A DNA stretch of 64,000 nt, taken from contig OZ024741.1 of assembly GCA_964016885.1 (NCBI GenBank), positions 209,002,001 through 209,066,000 on the forward strand, in the 5' to 3' direction. The notes below the pieces were generated by a model. It did no database searches and was not told the origin of the DNA. It saw nothing but the letters and a program-made list of their open reading frames with translations. Below, one piece after another: positions 56,475-57,416 of the stretch (positions are counted from its first letter, which is position 1; each line of letters opens with the position of its first letter). Made by a program: the position numbers and the translations under genes. Source of the DNA: Eledone cirrhosa (taxonomy: Eukaryota).

Positions 56475-56760
56475 GACCACAAAAAATTGACTGCAATGTT
56501 AAAACATCAGATGAGATATATTGCAGTATATATTCCGAAAATTGTCAGAAAAATAGCTGACGCTTCGACGAGGTATTGCAATATTTCCTTGGTTCGACCT
56601 AACGGCACCTTACCTATATATATATATATATATATATATATATATATATATATATATATATATATATATATATATATATATATATATATATATATATATA
56701 TATATATATATATATATATATATATATATAAGATCAAAAGATGGTTAAAAGAGTTCCATA

Positions 56761-56831
56761 TATTTTATTATGCGCATTTCAAAAACAAATATCATCATGC
56801 AATAACATTTGTGTTTTCATCAGATAAAATA
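56761..56831 (-). ncRNA. Type-I hammerhead, inverted arm
   Basis: Reverse complement of 56956-57026. Confidence 0.85.
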
Positions 56832-56955
56832 GGAAGACATGATATGAAGGTTATAAACACTTGTGGATAGTGCAGTTTTAAATCAACATATGTTGATATG
56901 TTGATTTAAAACTGCACTATCCACAAGTGTTTTTAACCTTCATATCATGTCTTCC

Positions 56956-57026
56956 TATTTTATCTGATGAAAACACAAATGTTATTGCATGATGATATTT
57001 GTTTTTGAAATGCGCATAATAAAATA
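56956..57026 (+). ncRNA. Type-I hammerhead ribozyme
   Basis: tattttat-CTGATGA-aaacacaaatgtt...gatatttgttttt-GAA-ATGCGCAT-A-ataaaata; perfect 8-bp stem I, palindromic stem III. Confidence 0.88.
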
Positions 57027-57416
57027 CATGGAACTCTTTTAACCATCTTTTGATCTTATATATTATGTATACTCCAGTCCTACAAACTGTAGAGTGCTTC
57101 TTATCCGATATCTGCATTGCTTTATTGTACTACAATAAAACTCACCTCCTACACATATATATATATATATATATATATATATATATATATATATATATAT
57201 ATATATATATATATATATATAATATTAGGGATACTATTTATGGTTATGTATATATCAAAACTTTTTATAGTTATGTATATTTTAAACCCTAAACAGTGAA
57301 GGTCAGTAATTTATTACTACCTTATTACCAGTAAGATAAATAGCTCAATGTAATAACATAAATTGTTCTACAGAGCAGTTATATAGAATTCAATTATGTG
57401 TACAAACATTGAAAAA

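Follow-up and report, generated by a model that had tools for sequence, protein, structure and literature searches.

A hammerhead-bearing palindrome of Eledone cirrhosa read as a 5′-truncated, inverted Penelope-like insertion

EN+ Penelope-like elements (PLEs) of the Hydra clade, such as Penelope-13_HM and Hydra-1_Obim, carry a sense-strand type-I hammerhead near the 3′ end and target (TA)n (PMC8557442), and the supplement to that study gives Penelope-13_HM an inverted copy with hammerheads on both strands. The motifs RWK, DKT, CxCx5C and CxxC/CxH are diagnostic of the clade (PMC8557442). An inverted 5′-truncated copy, a one-sided tail and a bias towards (TA)n are described PLE features (PMC8557442, PMC8969392), and the origin of the inverted copies and one-sided tails is treated as still unsettled (PMC8557442, PMC11167929). 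The minimal, dimeric hammerheads in the pseudo-LTRs of metazoan PLEs are of type I, with a long helix II and a short palindromic helix III that favours dimers; opposite-strand pairs lie 100-700 bp apart, and the monomers were reported as inactive and the dimers as weak (PMC4209133). In another study PLE hammerheads needed the element's protein, and insertion in vitro proceeded without the hammerheads (PMC11167929). Non-LTR retrozymes, for which a PLE origin has been proposed, are short, non-coding, low-GC elements with a type-I hammerhead, arranged as direct tandem repeats that release monomers and circles (PMC7229834; bioRxiv 10.64898/2026.07.22.740005). For inverted Penelope copies in Drosophila, capable of forming double-stranded RNA, both transcription and siRNAs from the inverted regions have been demonstrated (PMC3681739). 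Among the papers listed for octopus, Penelope and hammerhead, no title described the family of the locus analysed here.

Our window is a 64-kb stretch of repeat-rich eukaryotic DNA, in which a unit of 424 bp (56731-57154) is bounded on both sides by (TA)n arrays (Table 1), the left one being the likely insertion target. Of the 52 homologues of an ORF in the window, one is named from Octopus bimaculoides, in keeping with an octopus source. The inverted-repeat arms (56724-56891 and 56896-57063) are 168 nt each with a 4-nt gap between them, are 99% identical, end at the same truncation base and pair at 166 of 168 positions. The two mismatches (56854/56933 and 56760/57027) fall in neither hammerhead. 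Once the bases that also belong to (TA)n are left out, the palindrome measures 326 bp (56731-57056), in good agreement with the roughly 330 bp of a preliminary description made from the same DNA. The span given there, 56729..57155, covers the palindrome and also takes in a one-sided extension of 91 nt that was not mentioned. The tail-less arm meets (TA)n through a 7-nt TATATAT microhomology, and the predicted cut lies 38 nt from the end on the short side and 136 nt on the tail side. At the centre a perfect 12-bp palindrome (56884-56895) overlaps a tandem 8-mer (56888-56895 and 56896-56903), from which we infer a candidate snap-back site.

Table 1. Coordinates of the 424-bp unit, its flanks and comparable elements in the window.
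Feature	Position	Strand	Remark
(TA)n array, left flank	56615..56730	.	58 copies
Tail-less arm	56731..56891	-	ends 38 nt past cut
Type-I hammerhead, left copy	56761..56831	-	core from 56823; predicted cut after 56769
Head-to-head junction	56884..56903	.	from sequence
Tail-bearing arm	56896..57063	+	matches left arm at 166/168 positions
Type-I hammerhead, right copy	56956..57026	+	predicted cut after A57018
One-sided tail	57064..57154	+	91 nt; 98 counting microhomology; left arm without tail
Bulged stem-loop ACTC-CAGT-loop-ACTG-TA-GAGT-GCT	57071..57098	+	opens tail; recurs at other PLE ends
(TA)n array, right flank	57155..57225	.	
5′-truncated PLE, Hydra-clade ORF motifs	2022..5333	+	ORF 2247-3914
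Palindrome, outward hammerhead 3′ halves	43249..43596	.	palindrome 43377-43596; palindromic stem III; 134-nt one-sided tail
Shorter palindrome in (TA)n	51598..51814	.	palindrome 51676-51814; outward hammerhead 3′ halves; 80-nt one-sided tail, stem-loop

Neither a second copy of the unit's sequence nor a parent copy of its family was found within the 64-kb window. Tandem repeats between 55000 and 59000 were microsatellites only, and the copies that make up the palindrome are inverted rather than direct. When 52 homologue queries were used to look for a coding remnant in the unit, the best tblastn E-value among the matches listed was 0.17; absence of an ORF with reverse transcriptase (RT) and GIY-YIG domains is expected for a copy truncated within the 3′ UTR. 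A phage collection gave no match, and a scan for sigma-70 promoters, with 8 sites compared with 12.0 in shuffles, was set aside as irrelevant for a eukaryote.

CTGATGA cores at +56964 and -56823 identify two type-I hammerheads directed outward on opposite strands, as had been described. The right motif consists of stem I (56956-63/57019-26), the core (56964-70), stem II (56971-57006), GAAA (57007-10) and stem III (57010-17). Stem I is indeed a perfect 8-bp Watson-Crick helix (TATTTTAT/ATAAAATA) and stem III a self-complementary 8-nt even palindrome (ATGCGCAT), and our cleavage prediction falls at the position expected previously, after A57018 with its mirror at 56769. Both motifs contain the CUGANGA core, GAAA, A15.1-U16.1 and H17; stems I, II and III can close, with the open ends in stem I, and stem III closes only as a dimer. 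The word canonical, applied to these motifs before, holds for the core bases but not throughout: the G10.1-C11.1 pair is missing and replaced by A-U, as in the comparator at 2022-5333 (G-U at 6673), and stem II, a 16-step A/U-rich helix in a 36-nt region, includes one C-U mismatch and three G-U pairs. Rfam likewise returned no gathering-level match in the 64-kb window, and its 43 matches at E<=10 did not include a hammerhead. Several Hydra-clade motifs in the supplement of PMC8557442 also have U before GAA. The Rfam matches with the best E-values were miRNA models, which fit any long hairpin; all were below the cut-off, and a miRNA gene was rejected.

A hammerhead descriptor matched five times in the window, on both strands, compared with a mean of 0.01 (maximum 1) in 100 block shuffles, and the motifs are therefore not due to chance. 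On its own, the hammerhead region showed no greater stability than shuffles (z -0.84). Relative to the pseudo-LTR hammerheads of PMC4209133 the motifs share type I, the long helix II and the short palindromic helix III, and differ in having A-U instead of G10.1-C11.1 and a stem I of 8 rather than 4-5 bp. By eye, the combination of an 8-bp A/U stem I, a 36-nt stem II and an 8-nt stem III palindrome corresponds to no row of the PMC8557442 table. Stem I is nearly identical (TATTTTRT/RTRAAATA) in three different elements of the window (5219-5284, 6665-6723 and 56956-57026), whose hammerheads, judging by these letters, could in principle pair across families.

The closest comparator in the window, at 2022-5333, encloses its ORF between its 3′ end and a 193-bp, 99% identical inverted copy of that end. 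Its hammerheads point outward at -2210 and +5227, it has a 90-nt tail with the stem-loop, and its cut-to-(TA)n distances are 138/48 nt, compared with 136/38 nt in the unit. The ORF, being 5′-truncated, has C-terminal motifs only (YRDD, CxCx5C, CxxC and CxH); a second ORF at 30424-32486 adds RWK and DKT to this set and by eye looks like the published Hydra-1_Obim protein. Pfam gave no match for ORF 2247-3914 and a sub-threshold GIY-YIG match in three of nine homologues, and a PDB search with a 24-sequence profile yielded one weak match that is not decisive, a retron reverse transcriptase (E 0.015). The assignment of the comparator protein thus rests on the motifs and the by-eye match to published Hydra proteins.

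A covariance model trained solely on the hammerheads at 5219, 2153 and 6665 placed the pair of the unit, at 44.1 bits and a rough E of 4e-8, directly below the sequences on which it had been trained; 23 matches reached E<=5. This ranking indicates that the hammerheads of the unit and of 2022-5333 belong to one family. Beyond the hammerhead the arms showed no significant similarity to the comparator, either upstream (663 of 1000 shuffles scored as well) or downstream (78 of 1000), and the similarity between the two tails was modest (11 of 1000). Scanning for hammerhead 3′ halves gave ten matches; six form outward pairs in three palindromes (56731-57056, 43377-43596 and 51676-51814) that differ in sequence and truncation point, and the four unpaired matches were set aside. 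Further outward pairs occur at -11083/+12330, with a variant core, and at -7059/+10622, bringing the tally for the window to four full outward pairs and two half pairs. The hammerhead at +6673 is a single copy and ends 54 nt short of (TA)n. The unit thus belongs to a series whose bodies range from 3 kb to less than 100 nt.

Other elements share the window. The PLE 3′ fragments at 11015-12486 and 41425-43224 have a variant hammerhead with a CAGAAGA core and U as the cleavage-site base; the inverted copy is about 241 nt long, and a tail of 88 nt lies on the body side. A PLE of another type (6770-10935 and 1-2040), with RT and GIY-YIG Pfam matches, has a 1-kb inverted repeat with outward minimal hammerheads at -7059/+10622 and a further copy at +1733. 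The Hydra-clade PLE at 30291-33632 is near full-length and frameshifted, with an inverted tail stem-loop (30349, minus strand) just 5′ of the start codon and possibly a decayed hammerhead near 33490-33530. At 13300-13783, arms of 184 bp (98% identical) are inverted around (CT)n(TA)n(GA)n, and neither a hammerhead nor a tail motif is present; from its appearance we take this repeat to be SINE-like. An abundant interspersed repeat of about 200 bp, which we presume to resemble an octopus SINE, occurs at 56051-56474 (a tandem pair), 29300, 34038, 53505, 54527, 58417 and 60024. Non-LTR retrotransposon ORFs lie at 15770-21266, 24034-27425, 47106-49262 and 43596-44792, one two-ORF element being nearly complete, and three of these four regions have Pfam RT and endonuclease matches. 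A short open frame at 53070-53414 has no Pfam match and presumably resembles the C-terminal end of a Pif1/Helitron helicase.

We conclude with high confidence that the unit is most likely a single, heavily 5′-truncated insertion of a Hydra-clade PLE, and we predict that a hairpin traps its hammerheads. A head-to-head 5′-truncated inverted copy, a tail at one end and a hammerhead near the 3′ end, as in EN+ PLEs, are all present, and the tail-less arm is most likely the 5′-truncated 3′ end of the element. As in the Hydra clade the insertion lies in (TA)n; the unit itself encodes no protein. With neither a coding remnant nor a parent copy in the window, the clade assignment depends on non-coding features, and it is most likely the hammerhead family and the tail that tie the unit to its Hydra-clade neighbours. 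In contrast to the published elements the unit has no ORF and a body no longer than its inverted copy, which accounts for the near-perfect palindrome. Further points against this reading are the length of the tail, about 90 nt where 30-40 nt has been published, and the inverted duplication at 13300-13783, which lacks PLE marks. The one-sided tail and the (TA)n flanks, both absent from the preliminary description, are diagnostic of origin, and a 5′-truncated inverted Penelope-like insertion is most likely what that description missed.

The arms, 99% identical and truncated at one common base, could also belong to a palindromic family, non-autonomous and MITE-like or retrozyme-like, in which 424 bp with paired outward hammerheads would transpose as one fixed unit, and non-autonomous PLE derivatives are on record (bioRxiv 10.64898/2026.07.22.740005; MRC1 in PMC8557442). 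We consider such a family very unlikely. The unit is a single copy in 64 kb, the three short palindromes share neither sequence nor truncation point, and the ribozymes are predicted to be unable to fold in the RNA of the unit. When examined for the terminal inverted repeats of a MITE, the right end proved to be unique tail, again with one copy in the window. Retrozymes are described as direct tandem repeats (PMC7229834), whereas the unit, like them short, non-coding and low in GC with a type-I hammerhead, is inverted and offers no double cleavage of one RNA; as a non-LTR retrozyme it was rejected for lack of direct tandem repeats with sense hammerheads.

The part of the unit worth pursuing is the stem-loop of the tail, the A-U form of a GCTC-hairpin-GAGCACT pattern. 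Four pairs were measured, and in all of them the stem-loop lies 4-7 nt beyond the end of the short arm, which shows 3-7 nt of TA microhomology. A descriptor of the stem-loop matched five times in the window, compared with a mean of 0.035 (maximum 1) in 200 shuffles; it was designed after three of the five matches were known, those at 57628 and 51670 being new, and a long-loop form, as in the tail of 43249-43596, adds a match at 43372. Since pairing is built into the descriptor, the evidence consists of enrichment and position, not covariation. In RNAfold the stem-loop came out as the fold of lowest energy in the tails at 2022 and 43249 but not in that of the unit. The pair at 11015-12486, outside the set of four, has a looser motif 4-5 nt beyond the repeat end; its tail (12398-12486) contains GCTC...GAGC in the right position and has no alignment similarity to that of the unit (794 of 1000 shuffles scored as well).

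By eye, the GCTC-hairpin-GAGCACT pattern can be recognized downstream of the hammerhead in three of six published Hydra consensi (Hydra-2_Amil, Hydra-2_Ajap and, with one mismatch, Hydra-1_Crog; PMC8557442 supplement). The same reading placed it at the 5′ end of Hydra-1_Ajap and did not see it in the consensi of Hydra-1_Amil or Hydra-1_Obim. The words stem-loop, hairpin and palindrome are absent from the main text of PMC8557442, and among the papers listed in a literature search no title described the tail stem-loop. We tentatively suggest, at a little under even confidence, that the stem-loop (RCTC-hairpin-NN-GAGY) is an undescribed Hydra-clade cis-signal, conserved from this genome to coral, sea cucumber and copepod families, which fixes the end of the short arm and acts as a reverse-transcription start/stop site or an endonuclease resolution site. 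A different idea, that the tail is antisense to a PLE 5′ leader (its score of 47 was the highest among 2530 windows, with 42 in second place), was dropped because GAGYRCT is nearly self-complementary and the tail at 30349 is inverted. Nearby, a 250-bp segment between (TA)n arrays (57527-57775) contains the stem-loop at 57628 on the minus strand without a hammerhead core and is possibly the end of another PLE family.

The regular position of the short-arm end bears on whether the inversion came with the insertion. An older single PLE remnant might instead have undergone a later duplication beside (TA)n, through fold-back repair of a generic kind or through template switching during replication. 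Microhomology at the centre and at the (TA)n junction would fit such an event, as would the inverted duplication at 13300-13783, which has neither hammerhead nor tail. Random repair does not, however, predict a short arm that stops 4-7 nt before the stem-loop in four of four pairs, and we regard later duplication as even less likely than a mobile palindromic family.

The insertion reading leaves the question of what RNA from the unit would do. In a lone hammerhead the computed pairing probability was 0.5-0.7 for stem I and 0.5-1.0 for stem II, except at the mismatch, whereas the 2-bp stem III of the monomer had a probability of 0.00. In the dimer, intermolecular stem III extended over 8 bp with a probability of 0.89-1.0, and the energy was -33.3 kcal/mol compared with -21.2 kcal/mol for two monomers. 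This bears out the earlier proposal that the palindromic stem III permits a dimer, and it was also correct that either read-through strand carries one ribozyme together with its own antisense. The antisense arm is the first to be transcribed in each strand. In read-through RNA of the whole unit, forcing the hammerhead fold cost about 101 kcal/mol, and the probabilities of stems I and II were 0.00 at every chain length tested; the hammerheads are thus predicted to be locked in the hairpin. Folding computations gave a foldable hammerhead only for RNAs beginning at or past about 56835, and on this model such RNAs would probably need a second same-sense copy for cleavage. The palindrome cannot provide that partner in cis, because two same-sense copies are required and the pair is inverted.

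The self-silencing switch suggested before is not supported, since with an energy gap of 101 kcal/mol and stem probabilities of 0.00 the hairpin wins outright. A selected regulatory device in the wider sense, either such a switch or a dedicated hairpin-RNA gene, is highly improbable and less credible again than later duplication. The intact cores and the near-perfect 160-bp duplex speak for it, and the Drosophila siRNAs (PMC3681739), together with reports that palindromic repeats are strong editing targets and that octopus is heavily hyper-edited (PMC5625713), offer precedents. The hammerheads, however, show no sign of selection. They had been called perfect, and both arm mismatches do lie outside them, but the chance that both would miss the 71-nt hammerhead is P=0.33, so their mismatch-free state points to youth. 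None of the 124 open frames with 100 aa or more was recognized as a host exon, and metazoan PLE hammerheads are reported to cleave poorly or to require protein (PMC4209133, PMC11167929). Read-through RNA is modelled as a 160-bp duplex, on which Dicer or ADAR could act passively, and by analogy passive siRNA production or A-to-I editing would be a plausible by-product of the palindrome; in contrast to the Drosophila copies, the unit is known here from its sequence. Least credible of all is a sequencing or assembly artefact, a fold-back chimera at the microsatellite: the (TA)n flanks are long and several palindromes lie within one window, but the arms differ by two substitutions, the junction is asymmetric and the short-arm end is tied to a biological motif in four of four pairs.

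A PLE insertion could have produced the unit in the following way. The element's GIY-YIG endonuclease would nick (TA)n, and reverse transcription would start at the tail end and stop about 260 nt in. The cDNA end would then snap back on the ATAT repeat at 56888-56899 and be copied, and the copy would rejoin (TA)n through the TATATAT microhomology, 7 nt short of the conserved stem-loop. Alternatively, priming could occur a second time, from the other nicked strand, with the same outcome; this step would suit the longer neighbours better, since in 2022-5333 the tail is on the short inverted copy. Cleavage of both strands and two internal start sites bounding the tail have been reported (PMC11167929), and head-to-head palindromic junctions have been interpreted as self-priming (PMC3846280). 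By either route the paired hammerheads would be the element's ordinary 3′-end ribozyme, copied twice.

The arrangement of the unit is already described for PLEs; the copy itself is new and its kind is known. Penelope-like retrotransposition routinely yields outward hammerhead pairs. Genome scans call for caution, as such motifs escape Rfam and the palindrome looks like a miRNA hairpin. For the question of how PLE inverted copies and tails arise, the conserved structure that lies 4-7 nt from the short end is a concrete element to mutate. If the cis-signal proposal is true, the palindromes would be frozen transposition products that map the signal, and the origin of the inverted repeat and tail would become directly testable. 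If transcribed, such short palindromes would by their very structure supply double-stranded RNA directed against the family they come from.
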